Assembly: GCA_964467735.1 (NCBI GenBank)
Contig: CAYXSR010000001.1
Span: 108,839-172,838 of the forward strand
Origin: an uncultured Pseudomonadales bacterium
GTDB taxonomy: Bacteria; Patescibacteriota; Microgenomatia; UBA1400; CAYXSR01
DNA length: 64,000 nucleotides
Direction: 5' to 3'
In this document: in pieces, positions 2,718 to 47,220 of the stretch
Layout of the letters: every line of letters starts with the position of its first letter
Numbering within the stretch: position 1 is the first letter of the stretch
Position numbers and translations under genes: made by a program
Notes under the pieces: generated by a model
Told to the model about the DNA's origin: nothing
What the model saw: the letters and a program-made list of their open reading frames with translations, nothing else
The model's database searches: none

Positions 2718-2832
2718 ATTTCCATTGTATTAAATTAAAGAACCTAAGTATATCTGTAAAAAATCGGTAAAGAGTATTTCTGAAGAAAAAAATCACAAAC
2801 CTAAAAATTCATCTTCACTTTTGCTTTCAAAA

Positions 2833-6847: not shown

Positions 6848-6855
6848 TCCTACAA

Positions 6856-18543: not shown

Positions 18544-19998
18544 ATGGCTGAAAAAAAGTTTTATATTACTACTGCTATTCCATATGTGAACGCTGCTCCT
18601 CATCTTGGTTTTGCTCTTGAGATTATTCAAGCTGATGTTGTCGCTCGTTATCACCGACTTTTAGGAGAGAATGTTTTCTTTTTAGCAGGTACTGATGAAA
18701 ACGCTTTAAAAAATGTCCAAGCTGCTGAAAAAGAAGGTATTAGTCCGAAACAATTAGTTGATAAATATTCAGCTCGATTTAAAGCTTTAAAACAGGCTCT
18801 TAATCTCTCATTTGATGATTTCATTAGGACTACCGAAAAAAGACATTTTAAAGGATCACAGAAATTCTGGAAGGCTTGTCAAAAAGATATTTATAAAAAA
18901 ATTTACAAAGGTTGGTATTGTGTTGGCTGTGAAGAATTTAAAACTAAAAAGGACCTAATCAATGGTACATGTCCTGAACATCCTAATAAAAATCTAGAGC
19001 TAATTGAAGAAGAAAATTATTTTTTTAGACTATCTAAATATCAAAAACAACTAGAAAAACTTATTAAAAAAGATAAACTTAAAATTGTTCCCCTAGAGAG
19101 AAAAAATGAAATTCTTCAGTTTATCAAAACCGGACTAAAGGATTTTTCTATTTCCCGATCTTTTGAAAGAGCTAAGGGCTGGGGAATTCCTGTACCAAAT
19201 GATGAACAACAAATTATTTATGTTTGGTTTGATGCTTTAATCAATTATGTCACTGCTTTAGGTTATGCCAGTAATAGTAAATTATTCAAAAAATTTTGGC
19301 TAGAAAACAACAATATTCTTCATTGTATTGGTAAAGGAATTATCCGTTTTCATGCTGTTTACTGGCCAGCAATGTTAATGTCGGCTGGATTACCCCTCCC
19401 TAAAGAAGAATTGATACATGGGTACGTTACAATTAATGGTCAAAAAATATCTAAATCTTTAGGTAATGTCATTGATCCTTTTGAATTAGTTAAAAAATAT
19501 GGCACTGATGCTGTTCGTTATTATCTTTTAAAGGAAATTCCTTCCACTAAAGATGGCGATTTTACAATTGCTCATTTTGAAGAAGTTTACAATGCTGATT
19601 TGGCTAATGGTTTAGGAAACTTAGTCCAAAGAGTAGCTGTTTTAGCAGAAAAGGCTGGATTGAAAGGGTTTAAGAAACAAAAAGATATTATTGATCAAAT
19701 TGATATTGCTAATTTTATGGATAATTTTGATTTTCATCAGGTGTTAATTTATATTTGGGGTTACATGTCTGGATTAGATAGATATATCAACAAAGAACGG
19801 CCTTGGGAAAAATCTGGAAATGATGCTATAAAAATTTTATCTAAAATTATTGTTGCCGATGAAGGCTGTCGAGGAATTTTAAATATCGCTAGTCTGATTT
19901 CTCCCTTTTTACCAGAAACTGCTCAAAGAATTGAAGAAATATTTACTGCTCAAAGAATTGAAGCACCAAAAAAACCTCTTTTTCCTCGCTTACACTAA
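18544..19998 (+). CDS. metG: Methionyl-tRNA synthetase (short form)
   Basis: Class-I motifs PHLGFALE (HIGH-type) and KISKS (KMSKS). Zn knuckle CVGCEEF...CPEHPN. 484 aa. Confidence 0.9.
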   Translation: MAEKKFYITTAIPYVNAAPHLGFALEIIQADVVARYHRLLGENVFFLAGTDENALKNVQAAEKEGISPKQLVDKYSARFKALKQALNLSFDDFIRTTEKRHFKGSQKFWKACQKDIYKKIYKGWYCVGCEEFKTKKDLINGTCPEHPNKNLELIEEENYFFRLSKYQKQLEKLIKKDKLKIVPLERKNEILQFIKTGLKDFSISRSFERAKGWGIPVPNDEQQIIYVWFDALINYVTALGYASNSKLFKKFWLENNNILHCIGKGIIRFHAVYWPAMLMSAGLPLPKEELIHGYVTINGQKISKSLGNVIDPFELVKKYGTDAVRYYLLKEIPSTKDGDFTIAHFEEVYNADLANGLGNLVQRVAVLAEKAGLKGFKKQKDIIDQIDIANFMDNFDFHQVLIYIWGYMSGLDRYINKERPWEKSGNDAIKILSKIIVADEGCRGILNIASLISPFLPETAQRIEEIFTAQRIEAPKKPLFPRLH

Positions 19999-20041
19999 TT
20001 CATCTTTAAGTTATCTTGTTAAAGTGAGAAAATAATATATT

Positions 20042-20830
20042 ATGTTAGCCGATACGCATTGTCACTTAGATTTTTTTTCCGATTCTACAGAAAAAATCTC
20101 AAGAGCTAAAAAAAATAAGGTAGAAATTATTATTGCTCCAGGAGTTAATGCTGATTCAAATAAAAAATGTTTAAAAATTGCTCAAGAGAATAAGGGGATT
20201 TTTGCCGCTGTTGGTCTTCATCCTACTGATGTTTATTCTAATAAAATATCTCCACAAAAAGAGTTAGAAATAATAAAAAATCTTTTAGAAACAGGAAACA
20301 AAAAAATTGTTGCTATTGGAGAATGCGGTCTTGATTTTGGTCCTATAGTTGAAGGGGAAATCCAACGATCAAAAAAAATTCAAACTGATATTTTTAAAAA
20401 ACAGCTAAATCTTGCCTTAAAATATAATCTGCCAATTATTATTCATAATCGAAAAGCAAATCAGGAATTACTAAATATTCTTAGAGATTATAAGGGAAAA
20501 ATAAGAGGAGTCTTTCATTGTTTCACTGGAAGTAAGAAATTTCTTCAACAAGTTATTGATCTTAATTTTCATATTGGAATTACTGGTTTGATTACTTATG
20601 ACCAAGGATTACAAGAGGTTATTAAACAAGCTCCAGAAAATAAATTACTTACCGAAACCGATGCTCCCTATTTAATGCCAGAACCAATTAGAAAAACCAA
20701 AAAATGGCCAAATGAACCTAAAAATGTTAAAATTATTGCTCAAGAAATTGCTAAGATTAAAAATCTCTCTTTTGAAAAAGTAGCCGAAATTACAACTAAA
20801 AATGCAGTTCGATTATTTAAACTAAAATGA
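20042..20830 (+). CDS. tatD: TatD-family metal-dependent DNase/hydrolase
   Basis: ADTHCHLDF, IGECGLDF and IIIHNRKA motifs. Conserved metG-tatD arrangement. Overlaps the next gene by 4 nt. Confidence 0.85.
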   Translation: MLADTHCHLDFFSDSTEKISRAKKNKVEIIIAPGVNADSNKKCLKIAQENKGIFAAVGLHPTDVYSNKISPQKELEIIKNLLETGNKKIVAIGECGLDFGPIVEGEIQRSKKIQTDIFKKQLNLALKYNLPIIIHNRKANQELLNILRDYKGKIRGVFHCFTGSKKFLQQVIDLNFHIGITGLITYDQGLQEVIKQAPENKLLTETDAPYLMPEPIRKTKKWPNEPKNVKIIAQEIAKIKNLSFEKVAEITTKNAVRLFKLK

Positions 20831-22314
20831 TCAAAAAAATTATTGATAAACGAGAAAAAAAATTAAATCGGTTTTTGGAAATCCTTCCAGGAATTTTTTC
20901 TTGGTTTCTTATTCTTTTCCCTTTCTGGGGATCATTTCTTGTACCTATTGCTGTCGCTTATTATATTATTGCCTTTGATGTTTATTGGCTCTATCGGTCT
21001 TGTTCAATGGGGATTTTTGCTTTAGCTTCTTACCTTAAGATTAGAGCCTTTCAAAAATACGATTGGATGAGAGATGTTAAAGGTTTTGGAGATTGGCAAA
21101 AAATCCATCATATAATTATTATTCCTACCTATAAAGAACCGTTATACATTTTAAGAAGAACTCTGGAGGCAATTAAAAAACAAACTTTTCCTAAAAAAGC
21201 AATCTCTGTGGTTTTAGCTTTTGAAGAAAGAGAGGAAGAAGCGGGCAGACAGAAGGCTAAAATTTTAAAAAAAGAGTTTGCTAAAGCCTTTAATAATTTG
21301 TTTACCACCTTTCATCCTGATCTTCCTGGTGAAGTAAAAGGAAAATCTTCAAATACTTGTTATGCGGCCAAAATAGCTAAAAAAGAAATTGTTGATAAAC
21401 AAAAAAAAGACATCAATTTTATTTCCATTACTTCTGCTGACGCCGATGCTCGTCTTCATGAAGAATATTTAGCTTGTTTAGCATTTAAATTTTTAGATAA
21501 TCCTTCACGCTATAATCTTATTTTCCAACCAGCGATTATGTATTACAACAATATCTGGAAGGCTCCAGTATTAGTAAGAGTCTTTTCTTCTATTAGTAGT
21601 CTTGTTCAAGTGTCAATGTTAAGTAGAAAGGATCGTTTAATTAATTTTTCTACTTATTCTACTAGTTTAAAAATGGTCGATAAAATTGGTTATTGGGACG
21701 TCGATGTTATTCCTGAAGATTATCGTTTATTCTTTAAAGCATTTTTTAAGCTTAAAGGAAAATTAGAAGTTGAGCCTATTTTTTTACCAGTTTTTGCTGA
21801 CGCTGCCTTATCAACTTCTTTTTGGAAAAGCATGAAAAACCAATATGAACAAGTAAAGCGTTGGGCCTGGGGTGTCTCTGATGATGTTTTTATTATTAAA
21901 AAATGGTTAACAGAACCTGGCTTACCCTTTTGGGATAAAACGGTTAGAGTTCTAAAAGTAGTAGAAGATCATTTCTTATGGCCAGTTAATTGGTTTGCTA
22001 TTACCTTAGGAGCTACTTTGCCTCCATTACTAAATAAAGATTTCTCGCGAACGATTATTGGAAAAAGACTTCCCCAAACTGCCTCATTAATTTTAACTAT
22101 TTCACTTATTAGTCTAGTCTTTGCTATTTATATTGATTTTAGACAAAGACCAAAAATTGAAAATTTACCTGTTTGGAGAAAAATAATTATGCCATTTGAA
22201 TTTCTTTTACTTCCAGTAGTTGGTTTCTTTTTTACTGCTCTTCCTGGTATTGATGCTCATACCAGATTAATGTTGGGAAAATACATAGAATATCGAGTGA
22301 CTGAAAAAGTCTAA
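20827..22314 (+). CDS. Membrane-embedded processive family-2 glycosyltransferase (cellulose/chitin-synthase-like)
   Basis: N- and C-terminal TM segments flanking a GT-A domain with IIIIPTYKEP and ITSADADARL (DxD). The processive-GT2 QxxRW motif is present as YEQVKRWAWG. Confidence 0.65.
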   Translation: MIKKIIDKREKKLNRFLEILPGIFSWFLILFPFWGSFLVPIAVAYYIIAFDVYWLYRSCSMGIFALASYLKIRAFQKYDWMRDVKGFGDWQKIHHIIIIPTYKEPLYILRRTLEAIKKQTFPKKAISVVLAFEEREEEAGRQKAKILKKEFAKAFNNLFTTFHPDLPGEVKGKSSNTCYAAKIAKKEIVDKQKKDINFISITSADADARLHEEYLACLAFKFLDNPSRYNLIFQPAIMYYNNIWKAPVLVRVFSSISSLVQVSMLSRKDRLINFSTYSTSLKMVDKIGYWDVDVIPEDYRLFFKAFFKLKGKLEVEPIFLPVFADAALSTSFWKSMKNQYEQVKRWAWGVSDDVFIIKKWLTEPGLPFWDKTVRVLKVVEDHFLWPVNWFAITLGATLPPLLNKDFSRTIIGKRLPQTASLILTISLISLVFAIYIDFRQRPKIENLPVWRKIIMPFEFLLLPVVGFFFTALPGIDAHTRLMLGKYIEYRVTEKV

Positions 22315-22349
22315 AATTCACTTTTCTCCTTTGTATTTTTCTTGTTATA

Positions 22350-23660
22350 ATGAAATTTATGAATCAACTTAATACTTCTTTATGGGGTGATGAGTCTTTT
22401 ACTGCGGTCGCTGTTAAAGAAAATTTCTCAAGAGTAATGGAAATTGTTTCTAAGGATACTGCTCCTCCTCTCTATTATATTGTCCTTTTTTGTTGGACAA
22501 GAATTTTTGGCCATTCAGAGATTGCTATTAGAAGTCTTTCTCTTCTTTTATATTTAGGAACAATCCTTGTCGTTTTTTTAATTGCTAAAAAAATTTGGGA
22601 TAAAAAAACTGCTTTTATTGCTGGTTTATTGACCCTGGCAAATCCTTTTCTTTTTCCTTTTGCTTTTGAAGGAAGAATGTACATGATCTTGGTATTTACG
22701 GTTACTCTTTCTTTTTATTTCTTTATCACCGAAAATATTGTTGGTTATGTTTTAGCTTCGGCGGCGGCAATTTATTCTCAACATTATGCTATTTTAGTTT
22801 TATTCTTTCAATTTTTAGTTCGTTTAATTCAAATAAAAAATCTTAAAAAAAATTGGTTTAAATTAATAAAACCTTATTTGTTAATTTTTATTCTTTACCT
22901 ACCGTGGTTATATCCCCTTTATAAGCAAGTTACGATGGTTGCTGGTCAAGGTTTCTGGCTAGGTAAACCAAAATTACAAGATATTGCTGGATTAATCATC
23001 AGTTATCTTATTGGTGGAAAGTTTATTTTTATTTGGCAAAAATTCTGGTTTATTCTTGTTTTGCCAATTCTTCTTTTAAAAAAATGGTCAAAAAAACTTA
23101 GCTATAATTTTATTCTGATCGGTTGGGTTCTTTTCCCTATCCTATTAGCATTTCTATTATCCTTAGGAAAGACTTCCATATTTTTTGACCGTTACCTTAT
23201 TTTTATAATTCCTGGTCTTATGCTTTTGTTGGCTGGTGGTTGGCAAAAAATATCTCTTCCTTTAATCATAATTTTTATGGCTCCTTTTTTGTGGATTAAC
23301 TTTTATTATTTTACTCATCCTATAAAAGGACCTTTTCGAGAAATGGCTTCTTATATAAAAAATAGTCAAAAAATATTCTTAATTAACTATAATGGCACTG
23401 CTCATCATTTGTGGGAATCAAAATATTATGGTCTTTATGCTCCATTATATGTTCCTGGAGGAGAACTTCCTTATTATGTTGGCACTGCTCAAATGACAGA
23501 AAAAGATATTATCAAAACCATTCCTCAAGAAGTTTCCAAAGTAGGAGTTATTAGCAGCGAAGAACCAACTAAAATTAATATTAGCGAATATCGTCTTGAA
23601 AGTTTCCAAAAATTTGAGAAGTTTTATTTTTCAATCTTCGCTAAAAATGAAAAGATATAA
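22350..23660 (+). CDS. GT-C-fold glycosyltransferase, ArnT/PMT (GT39/GT83)-like
   Basis: Polytopic membrane protein with the characteristic first-loop acidic motif WGDESFTA and LYY early in the sequence. 436 aa. Confidence 0.6.
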   Translation: MKFMNQLNTSLWGDESFTAVAVKENFSRVMEIVSKDTAPPLYYIVLFCWTRIFGHSEIAIRSLSLLLYLGTILVVFLIAKKIWDKKTAFIAGLLTLANPFLFPFAFEGRMYMILVFTVTLSFYFFITENIVGYVLASAAAIYSQHYAILVLFFQFLVRLIQIKNLKKNWFKLIKPYLLIFILYLPWLYPLYKQVTMVAGQGFWLGKPKLQDIAGLIISYLIGGKFIFIWQKFWFILVLPILLLKKWSKKLSYNFILIGWVLFPILLAFLLSLGKTSIFFDRYLIFIIPGLMLLLAGGWQKISLPLIIIFMAPFLWINFYYFTHPIKGPFREMASYIKNSQKIFLINYNGTAHHLWESKYYGLYAPLYVPGGELPYYVGTAQMTEKDIIKTIPQEVSKVGVISSEEPTKINISEYRLESFQKFEKFYFSIFAKNEKI

Positions 23661-25113
23661 GACTTTAGTTATTATTGTCATAATTTTAAATATTTTGTTT
23701 AAAATTCCTTCTTTGATGGAACCTCTTTCTTATGGGGATGAATGTATTTATTTAGCTTTAGGTAGAGCTTTTCAAAAGGGAGCGGTTTTTTATCGAGATA
23801 TTCATGATAATAAACCTCCTCTTTTATACCTTGTTGCTGCTTTGGCTAATGGCAAATTAGCTTACTTTAGATTTATTAATATTATTTGGAACTCTATTAA
23901 TATCGTTTTAGTTGCTGCTTTGGCTAAGAAATTACTCAAGAATAAATGGGCTGCTCCCTTGGCGGCTTTCATATTTTTTATCTTCACTCTCTTACCTGAA
24001 GGAAAAGTTGCTAATGGGGAATTATTTATGATTATGCCTGCTACCTTAGGCGTTTTAATGACTATTAAAAATAAAAAGGCTAATTTTTGGTGGTTTCTTA
24101 TTGGTTTATGTTTTAGTTTCGCTTTTCTTTTTAAAGTCCCCATTATATTTGATTTTACTGGCTTTATCTTAGCAATATTTTTCTTTAGTAAAGCCGATCT
24201 TAATCCTGTTAAAAATATTAAAGAAGTTTTTTCTGCTTTTAAGAATAAGCGATTTTATTTTGTTCTTGGTGGTTTTTTATCTCCAATCTTGTTATCAATT
24301 CTATACTATTCACAGAAAAATGCATTTACTCCTTATGTTCGTTCTGCTCTTTTACAAAATATTGGTTACCTTTCTTCGTGGACTGGGAAAAACACCGGTT
24401 TATATGAAAGAGCTGCCATTCTAGCTTTAATGTCTTTATTCATTTTCGTCTGGAGAAAAAAATTAAGATTTTCTTTTTATCTTCCTGCCCTAATGACTAT
24501 TTTTGGTCTCTATGGAGTTTTTCTTTCCGAAAGACCATATCCTCATTATTTAATCGAAATTGCTCCCTGGGCAACAATATTATTAACCGTCCTTATCTTC
24601 CAACGACAACTAAAACAATTTATAATATCTCTTTTAATAATTTCCTTAACTATTGCTGGTGTGATCAAATTTAAATTTTGGTGGTATGAGTTTTTTCCTT
24701 ACTACCGTAATTTTATTGAATTCTGCTTGGGGAAGAAAAACAAAACAGAATATTTCAGGTATTTTGGAGACAAAGTTTTACAAGATTATCAATTAGCTGG
24801 TTTTATTAAAGAAAAAACAAGTCCTAATGATCGGTTTTTTATTTGGGGAGATGGTGTCTGTACTTATGTTTTATCAGACCGTTTACCTCCGGGAAGATAT
24901 ACGGTAAATTATCATATTTTTGATTTTAATGGTTTTAATGAAACAATAACTGATATTAGAAAACATTCAACTCCAATGATTATTATCCTAAATGAAGAAA
25001 CTAGAAGCTTTCCTCAATTAGAAAATCTCTTAAAAGAAAATTATGTTCTTGCACAAACTTTTAAATTTGCTAAAATTTATAAACTTATTAATCAAAATCA
25101 ATGGCTAAAATAG
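23647..25113 (+). CDS. GT-C-fold glycosyltransferase, ArnT/PMT-like (second copy)
   Basis: Polytopic. The first-loop motif SYGDECIYLALGRAF matches the DE/DExxY pattern of ArnT-like enzymes. The start at MKRYKTLV overlaps the upstream stop by 14 nt (the ORF track extends it further to 23596). Confidence 0.55.
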   Translation: MKRYKTLVIIVIILNILFKIPSLMEPLSYGDECIYLALGRAFQKGAVFYRDIHDNKPPLLYLVAALANGKLAYFRFINIIWNSINIVLVAALAKKLLKNKWAAPLAAFIFFIFTLLPEGKVANGELFMIMPATLGVLMTIKNKKANFWWFLIGLCFSFAFLFKVPIIFDFTGFILAIFFFSKADLNPVKNIKEVFSAFKNKRFYFVLGGFLSPILLSILYYSQKNAFTPYVRSALLQNIGYLSSWTGKNTGLYERAAILALMSLFIFVWRKKLRFSFYLPALMTIFGLYGVFLSERPYPHYLIEIAPWATILLTVLIFQRQLKQFIISLLIISLTIAGVIKFKFWWYEFFPYYRNFIEFCLGKKNKTEYFRYFGDKVLQDYQLAGFIKEKTSPNDRFFIWGDGVCTYVLSDRLPPGRYTVNYHIFDFNGFNETITDIRKHSTPMIIILNEETRSFPQLENLLKENYVLAQTFKFAKIYKLINQNQWLK

Positions 25114-25508
25114 AACAATTAAGGTTTTTTAAAAATTCTTCCTTTAAAAAAGTTCAGGAGGAATTTAATAATTTAATTTTTGATCTTTCTTCTAAAAAAT
25201 CTATTCGTTTAAGTCTTTTTCTTACTGCTCTAAACTTAATTTTAGTAGCGATTTTTTTTAGAAAATTACCTCCTGAAATTCCTTTATTTTATAGTCGCCC
25301 TTGGGGTGAGAGTCAACTAGTAACTAAAAATCAATTTCTCATTCTACCATTAGGAGGGCTGTTAATTTTAATAATAAATTTACGATTAGCTAGTTTTCTT
25401 TTTAGCAGGGAATTAATTTTGGCTAAAATTATTACTTGGACAACCACGGTAATTTCTCTATTAATATCAATAAGTTTAATTAAAACCTTTTTAATTATTT
25501 TCTTTTAA
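25101..25508 (+). CDS. Small membrane protein (4 TM), hypothetical
   Basis: 135-aa hydrophobic ORF between two glycosyltransferase genes. Overlaps the upstream gene by 13 nt. Confidence 0.35.
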   Translation: MAKIEQLRFFKNSSFKKVQEEFNNLIFDLSSKKSIRLSLFLTALNLILVAIFFRKLPPEIPLFYSRPWGESQLVTKNQFLILPLGGLLILIINLRLASFLFSRELILAKIITWTTTVISLLISISLIKTFLIIFF

Positions 25509-25512
25509 AAAA

Positions 25513-26598
25513 ATGTTTTGGAATATATTAAAAATTTTTCTTACTACCTCAATTATTTCTTTTATCATTACACCCTTGACAATTTTTGTCTATAGAAAAT
25601 TTGGCTGGCTTGATGATCCAAAGAAACATAAACATCCAAAAGTTGTCCATAAATATCCTGTCCCAAGGGGAGGAGGAATACCAATTTTTATTTCTTTTTT
25701 GATTAGTGCTTCTCTTTTCATCACTTGGGATAAACATCTTGTTGGTATTATTTTGGGAGCTTTTATAATCCTTATTATTGGCATTTTAGATGATATTTAT
25801 GATTTGAATCCCTATCTTAGACTAATTTTTGGCTTCATTGCGGCTGCTTGTGTTGTTGGTAGTGGTATTGGTATTTCTTTTATAACTAACCCTTTTGGGG
25901 GAATTATTCGATTAGATCAACCTCAAATTCCATTTTACCTTTTTGGTAAACTCCATACTATTTGGGTAATTTCCGATCTTTTTGCTCTTTTCTGGATTGT
26001 CTGGTGTATGAATTTTGTAAATTGGTCAAAAGGACTAGATGGGCAACTTCCAGGAATTGTGGTTGTCGCTGCTTGTACTATTGCTGCTTTGAGTTTAAAA
26101 TTCAGTGCCGATATTACTCAGTGGCCAGTTATTTTTTTAGCTATTATTACGGCTGCTGCTTATTTTGGTTTTCTACCTTGGAATTTCTATCCTCAAAAGA
26201 TAATGCCCGGTTATGGTGGAGGAGCTCTAGCTGGTTTTTTCCTAGCTGTCCTATCTATTCTATCAACAAGTAAAATAAATACCCTAATTATTGTCTTAGG
26301 TGTTCCTTTAATAGACGCTGTTTATTCAATTATTCGTCGAATTATAAGCGGCCGTTCCCCTGTTTGGGGTGATAAAGGCCACCTTCATCATAAATTAATG
26401 GAAATTGGCTGGGGGAAAAGAAAAATCGCTATTTTCTATTGGCTTATTACTGCTGCTTTAGGTATCTTAGCTTTAAAATTGAATAGTCAGGCGAAATTTT
26501 ATACAATAATATTGTTAACAATTATTATTGGTGCAGTTTTACTGTGGCTAAACTTATTAATCTCATCCTTAAATCAGCCAGACCGGTCCAATGGATAA
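25513..26598 (+). CDS. Polyprenyl-phosphate N-acetylhexosamine-1-phosphate transferase (GT4 MraY/WecA family)
   Basis: NFVNWSKGLDGQLPG (NxxNxxDGxDGL), LDDIYDLNP (DDxxD), and about 10 TM segments. 361 aa. Confidence 0.8.
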   Translation: MFWNILKIFLTTSIISFIITPLTIFVYRKFGWLDDPKKHKHPKVVHKYPVPRGGGIPIFISFLISASLFITWDKHLVGIILGAFIILIIGILDDIYDLNPYLRLIFGFIAAACVVGSGIGISFITNPFGGIIRLDQPQIPFYLFGKLHTIWVISDLFALFWIVWCMNFVNWSKGLDGQLPGIVVVAACTIAALSLKFSADITQWPVIFLAIITAAAYFGFLPWNFYPQKIMPGYGGGALAGFFLAVLSILSTSKINTLIIVLGVPLIDAVYSIIRRIISGRSPVWGDKGHLHHKLMEIGWGKRKIAIFYWLITAALGILALKLNSQAKFYTIILLTIIIGAVLLWLNLLISSLNQPDRSNG

Positions 26599-27476
26599 AG
26601 AATCTGGCTATTTTTACTGGTCTTGTGTTTACTGGATGGTTTTTTATTCCTGAAAAGTTTTTTCGTGCTTTGGCGGGATTTTTTGTTTTCTCAATTCTCA
26701 CTTCTTCTATTTATATTTTCAATGATATTTTAGATGCTTCTTCTGACCGGCTTCATCCATTAAAGAAAAATCGCCCAATTGCTTCTGGTAAAATTCCTAT
26801 CCCCACTGCTTTGTTTATCTCCATCGCTGGGTTCTTTATTAGTATTTTTTTAGCCACTAATCTTTCTTTCTTCTTTTTTCTTATTTGTTTTATTTATCTC
26901 CTTTTACAAATTCTTTATACCTTGTTTCTTAAAAAGGTCTCTATTATTGATGTTTTAGCAATTGCTTCTGGATTTATTCTTCGCGTCTATGCTGGAGCAG
27001 TAGTAATTAATACCCATATAAATATTTGGCTTCTTTTATGTGTTGTTTCTTTTTCTTTATTTTTAGCTGTAGGTAAAAGGCGTTCTGAATTAACACTTTT
27101 AGAAGCACAATTAGCTGTTAAACATCGTCGAGCTCTTTTTTCTTATCCAGAAAAATTATTAGATCTTTATATCTCCATGTTTGCTAATACTACTTGGTTA
27201 ACTTATGCTCTTTTTGCCTTTTTACAACCACCGATAAGACCAACAGAAAGGATTGTCCTTTTTTGGGCTGATCTACCTTTAGCTTTCAGAAGTCAAAAAT
27301 GGCTTATGGCTACTATCCCAGTAGTTATTTATGGAGTAATGCGATATTTGCAGCTCATTTATGAAAAAAATGAGGGAGAATCGCCGGCTAAAATTTTAGT
27401 TTCTGACAAACCATTGCTAGGAGCAGTAACTTTATGGGGAATAATGGTAATGATCGTAATTTATGGCTTTGGTTAA
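26544..27476 (+). CDS. UbiA-family prenyltransferase, resembling decaprenyl-phosphate 5-phosphoribosyltransferase (Rv3806c-like)
   Basis: N-terminal RPVQWIKNLAIF and the Asp-rich motif NDILDASSDRLHPLKKNRPIASGKI (NDxxDxxxD). 8-9 TM. Overlaps the upstream gene by 55 nt if the first ATG is used. Confidence 0.65.
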   Translation: MAKLINLILKSARPVQWIKNLAIFTGLVFTGWFFIPEKFFRALAGFFVFSILTSSIYIFNDILDASSDRLHPLKKNRPIASGKIPIPTALFISIAGFFISIFLATNLSFFFFLICFIYLLLQILYTLFLKKVSIIDVLAIASGFILRVYAGAVVINTHINIWLLLCVVSFSLFLAVGKRRSELTLLEAQLAVKHRRALFSYPEKLLDLYISMFANTTWLTYALFAFLQPPIRPTERIVLFWADLPLAFRSQKWLMATIPVVIYGVMRYLQLIYEKNEGESPAKILVSDKPLLGAVTLWGIMVMIVIYGFG

Positions 27477-28438
27477 TCAAAAAGTTCGGCGTATTTCCCT
27501 GAAATCCAACCTTCCTTATCTTTTTCATATTCAATTTTATACCAACCTGTTTCATTCGACTCAATAAACTTATAAGTCTCTCCGGGATGAACTTTTGTCA
27601 AAATAGTTTCCTCCTTACCAAAAGTAGAGGCTTCACTTCTAACATTTAACCAACCAGTCGGCGTATCTTTAATTTTAACATAAGGTTTTTCCAGTAACTC
27701 AGCACTACTGGTAGATTCTTTGATTTTAGGACTAGGGCTGGGTGTAGCTGATTCGCTGGCAGATTCATCTTCATCTTCTAGTTGAGCAGATGGAGAGGCC
27801 TCTTCATTTTCAGTGTCTTTTTCTTCTTCTAAAATACGAGCCAGCTGAACATTAATTACTAATTTATATCCCTTAACTGTTTTCGCCTTAAGTTCCATTT
27901 CTTCAAAACCAGGAGTAGCAATATTCAAAAGATGTTCGTTCTCACTAATATCTTCTAAAGATAGTGGAGTGAAGCCCTTTGGTTCTCCATCAACGGTAAC
28001 TACTGCACTATCTGGATTACTAATAATTGATACTTTAGCATTGTTTTTTTGACTTATTGGTTCTAGATTTAAAATATAGCCGCTTGATTCATCTTCTAAT
28101 TCTCCAAAATTTTGATTAACAACACTTAAAACACCGGCTGTCAATTTAATTGTCTTCTGCCAACTTAAGCTTTCTTTTCCTTCAGGAATTAATTTTAAAG
28201 TATATTCTCCTGGTTTTAACTTCTCGTCAAAAAAAGGTGTTTGTCCTAAATGTTGACCATCAAGAAAAACAGTTGCTCGAGGATCAGCAGTAACTTGAAG
28301 AGCGGCTTTTTTTTTATTATTTAAGAACGGCAGACTACATCCAGTAAGGAAGACAGAAATCAAAATGATTAATAAAAAAGAAGTAATCCTTCTAACATTC
28401 ATTGGCCTTATAATATCATGATGGTTCAGGCTTGACAA
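27473..28438 (-). CDS. Lipoprotein with two PEGA-like repeats, an acidic linker and a C-terminal bacterial SH3 domain
   Basis: Signal peptide plus lipobox VFLTGCS. Repeats VFLDGQHLGQTPF and VTVDGEPKGFTPL. E/D/S-rich linker. C-terminal GWLNVRSEASTFG...GETYKF...GWYKIEY (SH3b-like). Confidence 0.55.
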   Translation of the reverse strand: MSSLNHHDIIRPMNVRRITSFLLIILISVFLTGCSLPFLNNKKKAALQVTADPRATVFLDGQHLGQTPFFDEKLKPGEYTLKLIPEGKESLSWQKTIKLTAGVLSVVNQNFGELEDESSGYILNLEPISQKNNAKVSIISNPDSAVVTVDGEPKGFTPLSLEDISENEHLLNIATPGFEEMELKAKTVKGYKLVINVQLARILEEEKDTENEEASPSAQLEDEDESASESATPSPSPKIKESTSSAELLEKPYVKIKDTPTGWLNVRSEASTFGKEETILTKVHPGETYKFIESNETGWYKIEYEKDKEGWISGKYAELFD

Positions 28439-28503: not shown

Positions 28504-28574
28504 GGCCTCGTGACAGAGAAGTTATGTGCTGGTCTGCAAAACCAGTTACGCCGGTGCGATTCCGGCCGAGGCCT
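28504..28574 (+). tRNA. tRNA-Cys(GCA) candidate (or tRNA-like structure)
   Basis: Manual fold gives a perfect 7-bp acceptor stem (GGCCTCG/CGAGGCC), a perfect 5-bp anticodon stem (CTGGT/ACCAG) with loop CTGCAAA (U33, anticodon GCA), and a perfect 5-bp T-stem (GCCGG/CCGGC). U8, A14, G18 and the U73 discriminator typical of tRNA-Cys are present. The D-stem is weak, and the T-loop reads TGCGATT (G in place of U55). No encoded CCA. Confidence 0.5.
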
Positions 28575-28580
28575 CAAATT

Positions 28581-28790
28581 ATGTGTTTAGCAATACCTGT
28601 TAAAGTCAAAAATATTAAAAAAAACTTAGCCGAGCTTGAAGGAGGTAAAAAAGTAAAACTTTCTTTAGTTCCTGATGTTCAAATCGGTGATTACCTCTTG
28701 GTACATGGTAATTTAGTAATTAATAAACTCTCCCCCGTCGAAGCTAAAAAAATTCTTGATCTAATAAAAAGTTGTCCCCATCATCATTAA
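28581..28790 (+). CDS. hypC: [NiFe]-hydrogenase maturation chaperone HypC/HupF
   Basis: Begins with the invariant MCLAIP; 69 aa. The ORF track extends it upstream (from 28524) through the tRNA-like element, but the conserved N-terminus argues for the ATG at 28581. Confidence 0.8.
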   Translation: MCLAIPVKVKNIKKNLAELEGGKKVKLSLVPDVQIGDYLLVHGNLVINKLSPVEAKKILDLIKSCPHHH

Positions 28791-28795
28791 AAAAT

Positions 28796-29671
28796 ATGAA
28801 AAAAGGTGTTTTTTTCTGTTTATTAACTGCCCTCATTTCTGGAATTTCAATTTTTATTAATAAGTTTGGGGTTACAGGAATTAATCCTTTTGTTTTTGCT
28901 TTTTTAAAAAATTTTTTAGTCGCTTTCTTTATCTTTTCTCTAAATTCAAAAAAGCAACTTAATAACTTTAAAAAATTAAATTCTAGAGACTGGCTTCATT
29001 TAATTTTAATTGGCTTAATTGGCGGCTCTCTCCCTTTTCTTTTATTTTTCAAAGGCCTCTCTTTAACAAATCCAGCTGATGCTAATTTTATCCATAAAAC
29101 TATGTTTATTTGGGTAGGAATTCTAGGAGTATTAGTTCTAAAAGAAAAAATTAACTATAACTTTTTAAAAATTGGTTTTTTGCTCTTTATAGCTAATTTT
29201 CTTTTAATTAAAAACCTAGCGTTTAATTCCTTAAAGGGAAACCTATTAATATTTTTAGCAACCTTACTCTGGTCTACAGAAACAGTTATTAGTAAAAAAG
29301 TTCTTAAAACTATACCATCAATTACTGTCGCCTGGGGAAGGATGTTTTTTGGGACAATTATCTTAGCTGGATTATTAGCTTTTAATAATCAATTAATACT
29401 TTTAAAGCAGATAAATTGGTTACAATTTTCTTGGATAATAATTACAGCTGCTTTACTCTTAGGATATGTAACAACTTGGTACAAAGGGTTAAAAGAAATT
29501 CCTGCCTCTTTAGCTTCTGGCATATTGCTTTTTGGTTCACCAATCACTACAATCTTGGATTTTATATTACTGAAGAATTTAGAGTTAAAACAGCTTAGTG
29601 GTTTACTAGTTATTTTTTTCACAACCTCCTTAATTCTTAAAAAAGCAAATTATGTCTATCGTCGGAATTAA
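28796..29671 (+). CDS. DMT-superfamily (EamA-like) transporter
   Basis: About 290 aa with 10 predicted TM helices arranged as two 5-TM repeats. Start chosen at MKKGVFF (28796). Confidence 0.65.
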   Translation: MKKGVFFCLLTALISGISIFINKFGVTGINPFVFAFLKNFLVAFFIFSLNSKKQLNNFKKLNSRDWLHLILIGLIGGSLPFLLFFKGLSLTNPADANFIHKTMFIWVGILGVLVLKEKINYNFLKIGFLLFIANFLLIKNLAFNSLKGNLLIFLATLLWSTETVISKKVLKTIPSITVAWGRMFFGTIILAGLLAFNNQLILLKQINWLQFSWIIITAALLLGYVTTWYKGLKEIPASLASGILLFGSPITTILDFILLKNLELKQLSGLLVIFFTTSLILKKANYVYRRN

Positions 29672-30428
29672 AACTGCGATTCTTTATTCTCTACCTCCGT
29701 GTGAACTAGGATTTTGTGGCCCTAAACAAAAACAAGCTAAAAAAATTCTTCGGCAATTTATTCTGGGTAAAAAAGTAAATATTGCCAAAATCAAAAAGGC
29801 TTTAAAAAATTTTGAAGCTGCTTTTCCATATTATCAATTAATCGCTAAAGCCAATAATATTAAAGATGTTTTTAGTAAAAAAGTCGTTGAAGCTTATTGG
29901 CTAGGTAATGGTCTTTTAAAAAAAGTGAAATATTCAGATATTATTCATCTTATCCTCAGCCAGTTCTCCCAACCAGGTCTTTTAACTTTAAAAGAAGCCC
30001 AAAAACGAATAAAAAAAATCCCAAAGAGGGCTAAAGCTCATCATGTCTTTCATGTTTTTATTCTTGGTCCAATTGCTGGCAGAATTAATTTCACTCCTGA
30101 ACTTTTGGATTTATGTCGGGTTAGTTGGGGACAAATTATAAAAATAGAAAAAAACTCAAAATCTTTAAAAGTGAAAGTAAAAACTAAAACACTAATCATT
30201 CAGAACGGAAAATATGCCTTAGGGACAAAGATAATTAAACAAATTGAAGGAAATAAACACATTTTTAAAAACTTAAAGATTGGCCAGTGGATTAGTTTTC
30301 ATTGGAACCAAGTCTGTGATGTTTTAAATAACCAAAAAGTAAATGCGCTAAAATATTATACAAAAATTCACTTAATGAACAGCACAAGTAATACAGGGGT
30401 CAAAACTTCTAATAAGAATCTCAATTAA
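29652..30428 (+). CDS. Hypothetical protein with conserved Cys/His motifs (CELGFCGP, HHVFHVF), function unknown
   Basis: 258-aa ORF in the hypC-to-hydrogenase interval. Its 3' end overlaps the convergent hydrogenase large-subunit gene by 57 nt. Confidence 0.35.
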   Translation: MSIVGIKTAILYSLPPCELGFCGPKQKQAKKILRQFILGKKVNIAKIKKALKNFEAAFPYYQLIAKANNIKDVFSKKVVEAYWLGNGLLKKVKYSDIIHLILSQFSQPGLLTLKEAQKRIKKIPKRAKAHHVFHVFILGPIAGRINFTPELLDLCRVSWGQIIKIEKNSKSLKVKVKTKTLIIQNGKYALGTKIIKQIEGNKHIFKNLKIGQWISFHWNQVCDVLNNQKVNALKYYTKIHLMNSTSNTGVKTSNKNLN

Positions 30429-31619
30429 ATTATGTTGTTCTTCTATTGGCCGATTTTTATTTTGAGTTAGTAAACTAGTTGCCGCCTCTTCTATTGCTGC
30501 TAAATTTTGAGCTGTTGGAGTAAGAATATTACAATAAACTACTTTTCCATCTTTGACTTCAAAAGAATAATAAAGCGTTCCTCTTGGTGCCTCAATCGCT
30601 GCGCTTCCAACTCCTGATCTAAACGGTATCTCTACTTGAACTTCTTCTTGGGGACTTCTGTTAAACCAGTAAAGCAAATTTAATGCCTCCTCAAGAAAAT
30701 GAAAAATTTCTATTGCTTGAGCTACATTGATAAAAAATGGGTTTTTCTCTGGTAAAACAAGTGCCATATCTTTTAAAACTTTATTAGTTCTCCTATGAAG
30801 CCTATTTTTAAATTGATTAAGTCTGGAAAGTGCCCCGACTACAAAAGGTTTACTGGTAAACGAAGAATATTTTACTGGTGACCCATATTTTACCTGTTCA
30901 ATAATCAATTTTTGATAGTCGCCTGGGTCTGCCTTAAAACCAGTTAAACAACTAATTTGGCCATCATAATATGAATAATCCTTGTCGTTGTCTAAACAGA
31001 TCTGGGATGGATTAAAATTGCTAATCTTAGGGTATTCTAAGTGGCTAAAAATGCTAATTAGCTCCTCAGCACCAGAGAAAACCTGTTCGATATCTAGAAT
31101 TAAGGAAGATAGCCTGTCTCTATCTGGTTCTTGAGTAAACCCTCCCACCATCGGAGTAATCGGATGGACAACTCTGCCTGTAATTATTTCTAGAAGTCTG
31201 TCGCAGATTTTCTTTAATTTTAAAACCATATGGTATTCCACTGGATAAAGTTTAATTATCTCAATTCCTCTTTCTTTTTCAGGGGTAAAATCAGGCAAAA
31301 CAAGAAAAAAAAGGTGAATAAGGTGGCTGTTGATAATTTGACAGCAAAGCATTAATTTTCTTAAGTTGATAATTGTCTCATTTACTTTTACCCCTAAAGC
31401 GTTTTCTAAGGCTTTTATTGATCCTAAACTGTGAGCAACAGGGCAAATTCCACAGATTCTACAGGCAATAAAGGGAGCTTCCTGAAAATCCCTACCTCTT
31501 ACTAGCTGTTCAAACAGTCTTTCTCCCTCACTTACAACCAAATGAGCCTTATGATTAGCCATATCTAGCTTAAGATGTCCATGACCTTCGATTCTGGCAA
31601 TTAGATTAGATGTAGGCAT
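30372..31619 (-). CDS. [NiFe] hydrogenase large (catalytic) subunit, small cytoplasmic group-3-like type
   Basis: N-terminal Ni-Fe ligand motif RICGICPVAH. C-terminal ligand motif DPCITCAVH forms the last nine residues, i.e. there is no C-terminal maturation peptide. 415 aa. Overlaps the small-subunit gene by 14 nt. Confidence 0.9.
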   Translation of the reverse strand: MPTSNLIARIEGHGHLKLDMANHKAHLVVSEGERLFEQLVRGRDFQEAPFIACRICGICPVAHSLGSIKALENALGVKVNETIINLRKLMLCCQIINSHLIHLFFLVLPDFTPEKERGIEIIKLYPVEYHMVLKLKKICDRLLEIITGRVVHPITPMVGGFTQEPDRDRLSSLILDIEQVFSGAEELISIFSHLEYPKISNFNPSQICLDNDKDYSYYDGQISCLTGFKADPGDYQKLIIEQVKYGSPVKYSSFTSKPFVVGALSRLNQFKNRLHRRTNKVLKDMALVLPEKNPFFINVAQAIEIFHFLEEALNLLYWFNRSPQEEVQVEIPFRSGVGSAAIEAPRGTLYYSFEVKDGKVVYCNILTPTAQNLAAIEEAATSLLTQNKNRPIEEQHNLIEILIRSFDPCITCAVH

Positions 31620-32337
31620 TGAAAGAATTAATTAATTTATCTAGCTCTTCTTCTGGTAAAAAAGACAGTGTTTTCTTAATCATTTCTCGAGTAATTCCCT
31701 GTTTTAATCCCCAACATCCCCAACAGTATCTACCTGATTCGACACAAACCGCTCCACAACCAGCAAAAGTAAATACACCTAAACATTTCTTTTTCTGACG
31801 AACTAAACATCGTGAAGAATTAAATGGTCCCCGAGGACATTCAGTACAGACAGAAGTTTTTTTCTCTGGAGGAATTTTATCTTTTAAAAGATAAATTAAA
31901 GCCTCTTTTATTTGTTTAGGATTAGCTGGACAACCTCTAATAAAATAATCTACTTTCACATAACAATGGATTGGTTTTACTTCAAAGGCTCCCAATTTAT
32001 ACATTTGGTTATAGCTTTTATTCTTTGCTTCTTCCCTTGAAGATTGTTGGTTGAGGATTGATTGAATACCTCCTAAAGTAGCACAACTTCCCAAAGCTAC
32101 TAAGATTTTTGACTGTTGACGAATTTTTTTAATCCTTTGAATATCTTGACTATTGGTAATAACTCCTTCAACAATACTTATATCAAAGGGACCTTCAGTT
32201 TTAAAATCTGATCCCAAACGAAAGTTTACTAACTCATTGTCAGCGATTAAATCCATTAAAAATGTCCCTAAACCTAATAATTCAACCTCGCAGCCCTCAC
32301 AGTCAGTAAAGTCAAAAATAGCAATTTTTTTACCCAT
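31606..32337 (-). CDS. [NiFe] hydrogenase small (FeS) subunit, cytoplasmic, with no Tat signal
   Basis: Proximal-cluster cysteines DCEGCE, GSCA and GCP, plus a Cys-rich C-terminal third (CTECPRGP, CLGVFTFAGCGAVC, CWGCWG). No RRxFxK signal. 243 aa. Confidence 0.8.
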   Translation of the reverse strand: MGKKIAIFDFTDCEGCEVELLGLGTFLMDLIADNELVNFRLGSDFKTEGPFDISIVEGVITNSQDIQRIKKIRQQSKILVALGSCATLGGIQSILNQQSSREEAKNKSYNQMYKLGAFEVKPIHCYVKVDYFIRGCPANPKQIKEALIYLLKDKIPPEKKTSVCTECPRGPFNSSRCLVRQKKKCLGVFTFAGCGAVCVESGRYCWGCWGLKQGITREMIKKTLSFLPEEELDKLINSFNAYI

Positions 32338-45561: not shown

Positions 45562-45564
45562 TAA

Positions 45565-47204: not shown

Positions 47205-47220
47205 TTTTAAACCCCGCTTT

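Follow-up and report, generated by a model that had tools for sequence, protein, structure and literature searches.

The glycosyltransferase cluster at positions 20827-27476 of the window, i.e. the 64-kb stretch of DNA analysed here, is in our view, at about even chances, a vertically inherited envelope-glycan operon of the Microgenomates: a core of a WecA-like priming enzyme and a polysaccharide synthase to which a polyprenyl-phospho-ribofuranose branch has been added. All six open reading frames are intact and tightly packed on the forward strand, in agreement with the original prediction of six co-directional genes with tight overlaps, and their family assignments hold (see the table). The motifs quoted for them, QVKRW in the GT2, WGDESF and YGDECIY in the two GT-C enzymes (GT-C1 and GT-C2), DDIYD in the GT4, and RPVQWIKN and NDILDASSD in the UbiA-family protein, are present in the translations. 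The G+C content of the window is 0.27-0.36. The spacing is -4 nt between tatD and the GT2 gene and then, in order, +35, -14, -13, +4 and -55 nt; the convergent lipoprotein gene shares 4 nt with the end of the UbiA gene. Because tatD overlaps the GT2 gene, metG and tatD are probably co-transcribed with the glycan genes; the methionyl-tRNA synthetase was assigned from its translation and from Pfam tRNA-synthetase matches of its orthologues. The start codon of GT-C2 is probably the ATG at 23647 rather than the alternative TTG at 23596, since an identical database protein (P0241) has 488 amino acids.

Features of the glycan cluster and of related genes in the window
Feature	Position	Strand	Remarks
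GT-C-like gene (GT87-like) after the LCP gene	1467-2717	-	GT87 29.1 bits, cut-off 25
GT-C-like gene (weakly Alg6-like) after the LCP gene	269-1474	-	Alg6_Alg8 18.9 bits, below cut-off
LCP ligase gene	2833-3933	-	LytR_cpsA_psr 112.3 bits
metG and tatD, directly upstream of GT2	18544..20830	+	TatD_DNase 253.8 bits
GT2, membrane-embedded synthase, hyaluronan/cellulose-synthase-like, 495 aa	20827..22314	+	PF13632 35 bits; invariant core
GT-C1, PMT_2 family, 436 aa	22350..23660	+	PMT_2 36.9 bits; accessory member
GT-C2, ArnT/STT3-like fold (predicted), 488 aa	23647..25113 (ORF 23596-25113)	+	PMT_2 27 bits
Small membrane protein, DUF1648-like, 135 aa, 3 predicted TM segments	25101..25508	+	invariant core
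GT4, WecA-like polyprenyl-phosphate HexNAc-1-P transferase (predicted)	25513..26598	+	PF00953 92 bits; invariant core
UbiA-family polyprenyl-phosphate 5-phosphoribosyltransferase (DPPR/PPPR synthase type, predicted), 310 aa, GTG start	26544..27476	+	PF01040 66.7 bits
Convergent lipoprotein: 2 PEGA domains, Ser/Thr/Pro-rich linker, SH3b	27473..28438	-	PEGA 63.7 bits, SH3_3 38.3 bits

Chance does not explain the arrangement, since its synteny extends over 80 species-level genomes: in Microgenomates loci anchored on UbiA, the order metG-tatD-GT2-[GT-C]-small protein-GT4-UbiA with the convergent PEGA/SH3 lipoprotein gene recurs in 80/80 genomes, with varying composition; further clusters were sampled by anchoring on GT-C. 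The metG-tatD-GT2 order is preserved in most loci. The GT2, the small protein, the GT4 and the lipoprotein make up an invariant core, the first three of which had been recognized before whereas the lipoprotein had been left out. The GT2 was detected in 65 of the 80 loci, the remainder being mostly cut by contig ends; the small protein was found in 63, and the loci missed by BLAST have a gap of about 260-900 nt at the same place; the lipoprotein was found by BLAST in 67 loci (64 in one BLAST family). The other members come and go. A GT-C between the GT2 and the small protein is missing in about a third of the UbiA-anchored clusters (28/80); GT-C2 is present in 43 of these loci, and GT-C1 in only seven as well as in L091, L092, L093 and L095. 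Clusters labelled Daviesbacteria and Collierbacteria have UbiA but no GT-C, whereas the four GT-C-anchored loci L091, L093, L094 and L095, among them a Shapirobacteria-labelled one with both GT-Cs, encode one or both GT-Cs with no UbiA within 7-8 kb. Thus, the UbiA and GT-C genes vary independently among lineages. The lipoprotein is present in all UbiA-less clusters, and these also have the small protein, which is therefore not a dedicated flippase for a ribose lipid.

We suggest the following division of labour. The WecA-like GT4 would form polyprenyl-PP-HexNAc at the cytoplasmic face, and the GT2 would make a beta-glycan from nucleotide sugars and extrude it through its own membrane channel, perhaps starting from the primer made by the GT4, in the way of synthase-dependent O-antigens, with the small protein and the lipoprotein as putative accessory subunits on the membrane and the wall side, respectively. 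The UbiA-type enzyme would transfer 5-phosphoribose from PRPP to polyprenyl phosphate, and the 5'-phosphate would then be removed by a phosphatase. Since the neighbourhood encodes no epimerase, polyprenyl-phospho-ribofuranose is most likely the final form of the donor. It would be flipped across the membrane, and on the outside GT-Cs would attach ribofuranose to the polymer or else to a protein of the cell surface, the candidates being either the two GT-Cs of the cluster or the GT87-like pair near the LCP gene. Joining of a polyprenyl-PP-linked product to peptidoglycan could fall to the LCP ligase, and the LCP gene and its two adjacent GT-C-like genes, encoded in the same window, are possible downstream partners of the cluster.

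The ArnT-like nature of the two GT-Cs, as originally proposed, is supported by PMT_2 matches for both (cut-off 26.1 bits) and, for GT-C2, by a confident GT-C fold in the AF2 model (pLDDT 91.4, pTM 0.90), for which Foldseek returned STT3, ArnT (5f15, TM 0.55), DPY19, AftA, AftB and PimE. P26, Y29, D31 and E32, right after the first transmembrane segment of GT-C2, are invariant in 26 homologues. GT-C1 has no pairwise similarity to GT-C2; its WGDESF motif spans residues 12-17, ahead of any transmembrane helix. It is possible, although we consider it rather unlikely, that core and additions are separate, the four core proteins making one polymer and the cluster GT-Cs ignoring the product of UbiA. 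The GT-Cs might then use another polyprenyl-phosphate sugar or, in the manner of an oligosaccharyltransferase, the polyprenyl-PP-glycan of the GT4, for example for O-glycosylation of the Ser/Thr/Pro-rich linker of the lipoprotein, and the UbiA product might go to GT-Cs outside the cluster, for instance the GT87-like pair. The independent variation of the UbiA and GT-C genes speaks for this idea, as do the modelled fold of GT-C2, which is fitted by STT3 as well as by ArnT, the conservation of the linker in 64 lipoprotein orthologues (median peak S/T/P fraction of 0.57 in a 30-aa window), and the position of the GT87-like gene adjoining the LCP gene; the mycobacterial arabinofuranosyltransferase AftC is a member of GT87. 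On the other hand, UbiA is the sole polyprenyl-monophosphate-sugar synthase visible within the window, the Daviesbacteria- and Collierbacteria-labelled clusters retain the lipoprotein without a GT-C nearby, and nothing links the GT87-like pair to UbiA. We prefer the reading with the ribofuranose branch, for which the DPPRS genes located beside PMT_2-type GT-C genes on a Chondrinema plasmid offer a precedent. The original proposal of a lipid-linked pentose donor used by the GT-Cs holds for the predicted donor synthase, by homology and conserved residues; since the two kinds of genes vary independently, we only infer the step from the donor to the cluster GT-Cs.

Several partners of a complete arabinose pathway are missing: neither the window nor some 1.7 Mb of related loci yielded an epimerase, a 5'-phosphatase or a flippase of a known family. 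When the window and about 90 related loci were queried with DprE1- and DprE2-like proteins, no credible homologue came up; the sole match was a generic SDR (21% identity) in L040, at a distance of about 7 kb from the cluster. Neither FAD_binding_4 nor SDR families occur among the conserved neighbours. The original remark that DprE1/DprE2 are missing from the window and that the sugar may differ was thus correct, and the absence extends to the related loci. Nor was a PAP2/HAD phosphatase, a GtrA/SMR/MATE flippase, Glf/GlfT or an Emb-type enzyme found, which leaves the suggested analogy to arabinogalactan loose and arabinan synthesis unsupported. A strictly arabinogalactan-like pathway, in which DprE1/E2-type enzymes encoded elsewhere provide polyprenyl-P-arabinofuranose from which the GT-Cs build an arabinan, would have in its favour that Corynebacterineae use the same enzyme classes (WecA, DPPRS, GT-Cs and an LCP ligase) and that a Chondrinema (Bacteroidota) plasmid carries a DPPRS gene beside PMT_2-type GT-C genes together with DprE1/E2-like genes; in the face of the missing epimerases, Glf/GlfT and Emb-type genes, we regard it as improbable.

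The best supported step of the proposed pathway is the predicted synthesis of a lipid-linked ribose donor by the UbiA protein, which by its sequence belongs with the decaprenyl-phosphate phosphoribosyltransferase Rv3806c. It reaches 229.7 bits with NF008977, the model of this enzyme, just under the curated equivalog cut-off of 234, whereas all non-DPPRS UbiA models score at most 61 bits. Rv3806c (PDB 8j8j) is matched by the single sequence with E=1e-30 and by the family profile with 153.7 bits; the profile gives at most 37 bits on every other solved protein of the superfamily (AfUbiA 37, chlorophyll synthase 22, ApUbiA 20), and, among the E. coli enzymes, 21 bits on UbiA, 19 on CyoE and 7 on MenA. 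All 13 substrate-contact residues of Rv3806c, with roles as described (PMC10994848), map onto the protein: R22, K28, Y70, N73, D77, K87, R90, Q135, Y138, K143 and K191 are identical, and Y157F and K208R are conservative. The phosphoribose-binding residues are not common to prenyltransferases (PMC10994848). The placement in the DPPR-synthase subfamily was therefore well made, and with the conserved cluster and a UbiA protein outside the quinone and heme prenyltransferases, neither of the two outcomes that would have spoken against the original prediction was observed. The 310-aa protein has no fused phosphatase domain, and its type has at least 579 genome matches. That it is an ordinary prenyltransferase (for quinone, heme O, chlorophyll or archaeal-type lipids) placed beside glycan genes by chance, as its match to the general UbiA Pfam family and the label 4-hydroxybenzoate polyprenyltransferase given to homologues by some sources might suggest, is highly improbable given 7-61 bits for such models and proteins as compared to 154-230 bits for the DPPRS type, the retained residues for the 5-phosphate and ribose, and a gene whose neighbour in 79-80 of the 80 loci anchored on UbiA is the WecA-like gene, mostly with an overlap of tens of nucleotides.

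The priming enzyme had been described as WecA/MraY-type, and this can now be narrowed down: the GT4 is WecA-like rather than MraY-like. It scores 81 bits with the wecA equivalog TIGR02380 and 48.5 bits with that of mraY (cut-off 192), with its family profile E. coli WecA obtains 86 bits and E. coli MraY 44, and its cytoplasmic loop DRGHLHHKL is of the DRxHxHH style and aligns with DRQHIHHLI of WecA. In tblastn searches, E. coli WecA matched the GT4 gene in 79 sequences and MraY in none, MraY finding no match in the sampled Patescibacteria loci or the window. The possibility that the GT4 is the MraY (lipid I synthase) of the lineage, and the cluster one for peptidoglycan synthesis, can hardly be upheld against these data, even though canonical mraY is absent from the window and the only solved structures well matched by the profile are MraY (68 and 60 bits), there being no chain under the name WecA among the PDB matches to compare with. 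The motif quoted as NxxNxxDGxDGL was wrong: the actual sequence is NFVNWSKGLDGQ, with Lys for the first Asp and Gln for the last Leu in 28/28 aligned orthologues. This Lys occupies the position of what we take to be an important Asp of E. coli WecA (D156), and the donor may therefore, judging from this residue, be other than UDP-GlcNAc. The description of the GT2 as processive agrees with its assignment to the membrane-embedded synthases: while no solved synthase is matched at the sequence level, the AF2 model (pLDDT 78, pTM 0.80) suggests a HAS/BcsA fold, with Chlorella virus hyaluronan synthase (a TM of 0.58 across about 485 columns) as well as Xenopus HAS1 and BcsA as the best Foldseek matches. 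Its DxD (D205, D207), ED (E297, D298) and QxxRW (Q342, R345, W346) motifs are invariant in 23 orthologues. For the small protein, a conserved LPPxxPLFYSxPWGExQL motif follows the first transmembrane segment, and six of the 30 orthologues have a match to DUF1648, the best one with an E-value of 3e-5. The lipoprotein has an LTGC lipobox at residues 31-34.

Several known systems resemble parts of the cluster. The GT2 has its architecture and its DxD, ED and QxxRW motifs in common with hyaluronan synthase, BcsA and chitin synthase/NodC; its constant partners are not BcsB-type subunits but the DUF1648-like protein and the PEGA/SH3b lipoprotein. The O:54 O-antigen of Salmonella is synthase-dependent and made with WecA and the synthase WbbF, and the GT2 is likewise always encoded with a WecA-like enzyme. 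In Mycobacterium and Corynebacterium, the pathway from DPPR to DPA and on to arabinogalactan involves Rv3806c, Rv3807c, DprE1/E2, Rv3789, Emb/Aft GT-Cs, WecA and Lcp1. The window encodes the Rv3806c homologue with its substrate contacts, a WecA-type initiator, GT-Cs and an LCP ligase; DprE1/E2, the PAP2 phosphatase, GtrA-like Rv3789, Glf/GlfT1/2, the rhamnosyltransferase and the Emb-type GT53 are missing, the GT2 is a membrane-channel synthase in contrast to the soluble type of GlfT2, and ribose is a likelier sugar than arabinose. In the arabinosylation of group IV pilins of Pseudomonas aeruginosa, homologues of Rv3806c, DprE1 and DprE2 accompany the GT-C TfpW, and the DPPRS homologue provides the lipid-linked pentofuranose with which the GT-C decorates Ser/Thr residues on a surface protein. 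Unlike there, neither a pilin gene nor epimerase genes are adjacent here; by analogy, the S/T/P-rich lipoprotein might be the target.

The closest known system is, in the best reading, the three-component pentofuranose pathway of Kelly et al. 2024 (PMC11127046), in which a UbiA-family phosphoribosyltransferase is encoded with GT-Cs, as here, and in which PPPRS and GT-C add ribofuranose where the epimerase is absent. In Citrobacter youngae O1/O2, these are the PPPRS ORF15, the MATE flippase ORF14 and the GT-C ORF12 (GT136) (PMC11127046); serotype O1 has no epimerase and uses a polyprenyl-P-ribofuranose donor, the one predicted here, and the NDxxDxxxD residues essential in ORF15 (PMC11127046) are also found in our UbiA protein. 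The C. youngae system differs in having a fused HAD phosphatase domain and the MATE flippase, both lacking in our cluster, and in being a serotype-specific O-antigen locus rather than a lineage-conserved, housekeeping-linked operon that also encodes a WecA-like enzyme and a HAS-like synthase. The further candidates listed by Kelly et al. 2024 include no Patescibacteria (PMC11127046). In this reading, the cluster is a variation on a known pathway logic and not a copy of mycobacterial arabinogalactan synthesis.

Our analysis supports in part the interpretation of the gene cluster as an envelope-glycan locus comparable to that for arabinogalactan synthesis. The six-gene arrangement itself stands: six ORFs, all of them intact and on the plus strand, span 20827-27476 of an AT-rich window (G+C content 0.27-0.36 along its length), and encode a GT2 glycosyltransferase, two GT-C enzymes (GT-C#1 and GT-C#2), a small protein of 135 aa, a polyprenyl-phosphate HexNAc-1-phosphate transferase (GT4) and a UbiA-family protein. 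The best protein matches assign the window to a Patescibacteria genome of the Microgenomates group, nearest to Beckwithbacteria. The genes are tightly packed, with spacings from -55 to +35 nt; the upstream tatD gene overlaps the first ORF of the cluster and a convergent gene overlaps the last one, by 4 nt each. The motifs originally quoted for the encoded proteins were all found with one exception: GT4 reads NFVNWSKGLDGQ, not NxxNxxDGxDGL. A scan for promoters and terminators remained at shuffle expectation and is uninformative on the operon structure, and Rfam revealed no riboswitch near the cluster, the sole match being a tRNA-Cys.

Features of the cluster and of its surroundings (window coordinates)
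Feature	Position	Strand	Basis or remark
LCP (LytR-CpsA-Psr) ligase gene	2833-3933	-	LytR_cpsA_psr, 112 bits; about 17 kb upstream of the cluster
GT2	20827-22314	+	AF2 model with Foldseek fold matches; invariant motifs
GT-C#1	22350-23660	+	PMT_2 threshold passed
GT-C#2	probable start ATG at 23647	+	matches the 488-aa database protein P0241
GT4	25513-26598	+	PF00953, 92 bits
UbiA	26544-27476	+	DPPR/PPPR synthase-type by NCBIfam, profile and residue comparison
PEGA/SH3b lipoprotein	27473-28438	-	LTGC lipobox, two PEGA, Ser/Thr/Pro-rich linker, SH3b
tRNA-Cys (GCA)	28504-28575		overlap with the listed ORF 28524-28790 at the latter's 5' end
EamA gene, full-length	28772-29671		not conserved beside the cluster in related loci
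Ribose-phosphate metabolism genes	43782-47694		ribulose-phosphate 3-epimerase by Pfam; split transketolase and RpiB from translations only

The UbiA protein, which comprises 310 aa and the UbiA domain alone, had been placed in the subfamily of the decaprenyl-phosphate phosphoribosyltransferases (DPPR synthases, DPPRS), and this is borne out by the model and profile scores as well as by the substrate residues. First, in the ranking of HMM and profile scores that defines the placement, three NCBIfam models for decaprenyl-phosphate phosphoribosyltransferases were best (229.7, 183.9 and 124.2 bits), and the HAD-fused PRK08238-type model gave 155.6 bits. Neither curated equivalog cut-off is reached (229.7 versus 234 for NF008977, 4 bits short, and 183.9 versus 207 for NF008978); the models for quinone, heme, chlorophyll and archaeal-lipid prenyltransferases stay at or below 61 bits as compared to 229.7, which argues against a placement with the quinone or heme enzymes. 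Second, the mycobacterial DPPRS Rv3806c (PDB 8j8j) was the only solved match in a single-sequence structure search (E=1e-30), and a profile of 20 family sequences scored it at 153.7 bits, but AfUbiA, chlorophyll synthase and ApUbiA at 37, 22 and 20 bits and UbiA, CyoE and MenA of E. coli at 21, 19 and 7 bits. Finally, the cryo-EM analysis of Rv3806c has identified the residues that bind Mg2+, the pyrophosphate, ribose and 5-phosphate of PRPP, and decaprenyl phosphate (PMC10994848). Among the 13 substrate positions compared (R22, K28, Y70, N73, D77, K87, R90, Q135, Y138, K143, Y157, K191 and K208), 11 are identical in the UbiA protein and 11 are invariant in 20 orthologues; the two substitutions are Y157 to F, a residue also reported at this position in some mycobacteria (PMC10994848), and K208 to R. 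Since the phosphoribose-binding residues are absent from prenyltransferases (PMC10994848), their conservation discriminates between the two groups, and it places the window protein with the phosphoribosyltransferases. Judged by its sequence, the enzyme very probably makes polyprenyl-phospho-5-phosphoribose. DPPRS-type sequences are widespread, with 3,638 clusters at 50% identity (E<=1e-30) and plasmid-borne copies in haloarchaea, Bacteroidota, cyanobacteria and alphaproteobacteria; among phage sequences, the UbiA protein matched only an unannotated fragment of 6.6 kb.

The product of the UbiA enzyme would have to be dephosphorylated by a further enzyme. Pfam scans and inspection of the translations revealed no DprE1/E2-like, PAP2, HAD, MATE, GtrA or GtrB-like gene in the window, and no MATE, GtrA or SMR gene in the cluster. 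For comparison, we used two plasmids: one from Chondrinema that carries a DPPRS gene with an FAD oxidase, an SDR and several PMT_2-type GT-Cs, and one from Marivivens with a half-size EamA, a DPPRS and a divergent PAP2 gene. The Marivivens PAP2 (DUF212) had no match in the window or in about 90 Patescibacteria loci, the half-size EamA query matched nothing, and the GT-Cs of the Chondrinema cluster showed no BLAST similarity to the window. Queries with a DprE1-like and a DprE2-like protein matched nothing in the window, in agreement with the original observation, and found one generic SDR (21% identity) in one of the about 90 loci (L040, about 7 kb from the cluster); DprE1/E2-type genes are also absent from the conserved neighbours of the cluster. 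As a positive control, DPPRS queries matched 87 sequences. With no epimerase nearby, the donor most likely stays ribofuranose. The Marivivens plasmid was also considered as a second pairing of GT4 and DPPRS; this was rejected since the 'family 4' member there is a Leloir transferase of the GT-B type with no relation to PF00953.

GT4 is, on sequence grounds, WecA-like yet not a WecA orthologue. The wecA model (TIGR02380), whose cut-off is 326 bits, gives 81 and the mraY model 48.5, both far under the equivalog cut-offs. The GT4 family profile gives 86 bits for E. coli WecA versus 44 for E. coli MraY, and tblastn with WecA matched the cluster GT4 in 79 sequences whereas MraY gave no match. Moreover, the cytoplasmic loop DRGHLHHKL aligns to DRQHIHHLI of WecA. 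All 28 aligned orthologues (alignment A5) share the motif NxVNWSKGxDGQ, with a Lys at the position of D156 in E. coli WecA and of the first Asp in the DGLDG motif of MraY; this may mean that the enzymes use an unusual nucleotide-sugar donor.

Single-sequence searches of the PDB with GT2, GT-C#1, GT-C#2 and GT4 returned nothing meaningful, nor did profile searches with GT2 and GT-C#2; the folds were therefore taken from AF2 models. For GT2 (pLDDT 78, pTM 0.80), the best match was the hyaluronan synthase of Chlorella virus over the full length (TM 0.58), followed by Xenopus HAS1 and BcsA (TM 0.5-0.58 and E about 1e-8 for the three), and the DxD, ED and QxxRW motifs are all invariant in the orthologues. 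The model supports a membrane-embedded HAS/BcsA-type synthase with a GT-A domain flanked by predicted channel-forming TM helices, and fold match and motifs together are in line with the earlier description of a processive-type GT2 with predicted processivity. The GT-C assignments hold as well: The very confident model of GT-C#2 (pLDDT 91, pTM 0.90) matches STT3, ArnT (TM 0.55), DPY19, AftA, AftB and PimE, and both proteins pass the PMT_2 threshold although they share no pairwise similarity. In GT-C enzymes, the catalytic acids sit just after TM1, and the invariant Y-G-D-E of GT-C#2 lies directly behind this helix. The canonical layout has a TM helix before the DE; in GT-C#1 and its orthologues (about 427-442 aa), the putative catalytic DE is at residues 14-15 without a preceding TM helix. 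Two further GT-C-like genes follow the LCP gene (269-3933, minus strand), of which the one scores above the threshold for GT87 and the other is weakly similar to Alg6/Alg8, so that there are four GT-C genes in 64 kb.

The small protein has three predicted TM segments and a conserved LPPxxPLFYSxPWGExQL motif, and is weakly similar to DUF1648 (6 of 30 orthologues match, best E-value 3e-5). A role as a flippase of the GtrA, SMR or MATE type was rejected, since this weak similarity is the only one and the protein is kept in clusters without UbiA. The convergent gene encodes a lipoprotein with a Ser/Thr/Pro-rich linker that 64 orthologues retain, the median of their peak S/T/P fraction being 0.57; the lipoprotein is a candidate target of O-glycosylation or a candidate wall-spanning tether.

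The cluster is conserved in related genomes. At least 579 matches to the UbiA type were obtained with one genome per species, and the best 80 loci, all from Patescibacteria and where informatively labelled mostly from Microgenomates, were examined: The order metG-tatD-GT2-[GT-C]-small-GT4-UbiA with the convergent lipoprotein gene recurs among them. GT4 adjoins UbiA in 79-80 of these 80 loci, mostly with an overlap of tens of nucleotides; the lipoprotein was detected in 67, GT2 in 65, GT-C#2 in 43 and GT-C#1 in 7. The small protein was found in 63, and 12 more have instead an unannotated gap of about 260-900 nt at this position. When the neighbouring ORFs of the sampled loci were all clustered, no other conserved envelope gene and no phosphatase, epimerase or transporter emerged. 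When loci were sampled via GT-C#2 homologues, four of five contexts (L091, L093, L094 and L095) contained one or two GT-Cs with GT2-small-GT4 and the lipoprotein at about 5.7-13.3 kb of each locus, and gene calls and tblastn agree that UbiA is absent within 7-8 kb. The order is GT-C#1-GT-C#2-GT2-small-GT4 in three of them and L094 has GT-C#2 only; all four are contigs of related Patescibacteria, one of them labelled Shapirobacteria. Thus, the invariant core consists of GT2, the small protein, GT4 and the lipoprotein, and UbiA and the GT-Cs are separable additions to it, both of which are present in the window.

The core genes would form a polysaccharide system with a WecA-like primer and a synthase, and the LCP ligase offers a possible route to attachment to peptidoglycan. 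Use of the UbiA-derived ribose donor by the GT-Cs of the cluster can be argued both ways: polyprenyl-phosphate-sugar donors generally need GT-C enzymes and the window has no other lipid-sugar synthase, which favours it, but UbiA and the GT-Cs vary independently across lineages, which speaks against it. It is possible, though rather doubtful, that the cluster represents a Microgenomates-wide pathway for a secondary cell-wall polymer, in which the WecA-like enzyme primes the chain, the HAS-like protein synthesizes and translocates it, and the DUF1648-like protein and the PEGA/SH3b lipoprotein guide or anchor it, with ribofuranose decoration in many lineages through the stand-alone polyprenyl-phosphate phosphoribosyltransferase (PPPRS) and an unrecognised phosphatase and flippase. 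Just as tentatively, the DUF1648-like and PEGA/SH3b proteins would be new obligate partners and the pathway a previously undescribed one. If true, the Candidate Phyla Radiation would have in it a polymer that corresponds functionally to teichoic acids or arabinogalactan. Fused to metG-tatD and retained in 80 or more species genomes, the operon can be regarded as a strong candidate locus for a core surface polymer of the group. To our knowledge, the envelope chemistry of the Patescibacteria is essentially unknown because almost none have been cultured, and the cluster supplies concrete enzymes as a testable handle on it.

Several other genes of the window deserve mention. Two adjacent FemAB-family genes (5807-7731) imply a peptidoglycan interpeptide bridge; in combination with genes for an L,D-transpeptidase (51439-52128) and two PBP1a-like proteins, they indicate a wall of the Gram-positive style. 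The PBP1a-type genes, which lie in tandem (38283-40490 and 40553-42802), have 462 exactly identical nucleotides in common (38891-39352 = 41350-41811) with flanks that are only 68-77% identical, suggesting that gene conversion took place recently or that the assembly is chimeric here. Directly downstream of the cluster (28581-32337) are a HypC-like gene, the real start of which is most likely the internal MCLAIP at 28581, and a DUF6390 gene (Pfam); the translations at 30372-32337 (minus strand) resemble the large and small subunits of [NiFe] hydrogenase. A 232-aa ORF at 57655-58353 (minus strand) has no Pfam match, and its HRHAHILPG resembles the histidine triad of the HIT family.

The closest described logic is that of the three-component pentofuranose system (Kelly et al. 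2024, PMC11127046), in which a UbiA-type PPPRS makes polyprenyl-phosphate-ribose from PRPP, a MATE protein flips the lipid-ribose, a GT-C of family GT136 adds ribofuranose outside the membrane, and epimerases, where present, turn the donor into its xylose or arabinose form (PMC11127046). Unlike in that system, the UbiA protein of the window has no fused HAD domain and no dedicated flippase was found in the cluster; the GT-C of that system belongs to GT136, and the two GT-Cs of the cluster pass the PMT_2 threshold. The candidate list of that study (PMC11127046) contains no Patescibacteria, and full-text literature searches found no paper tying DPPRS/PPPRS enzymes to this phylum. Two variants of this logic involve DprE1/E2, namely the synthesis of arabinan in mycobacteria and the arabinosylation of pilin in Pseudomonas; no DprE1/E2-like gene was found in the window. 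The cluster extends the logic from PRPP via polyprenyl-phosphate-ribose to a GT-C to a phylum with reduced genomes, with the usual phosphatase, flippase and epimerase absent from the neighbourhood; as in the arabinogalactan pathway of the Corynebacterineae, a WecA-like GT4 and an LCP ligase are both encoded in the window.
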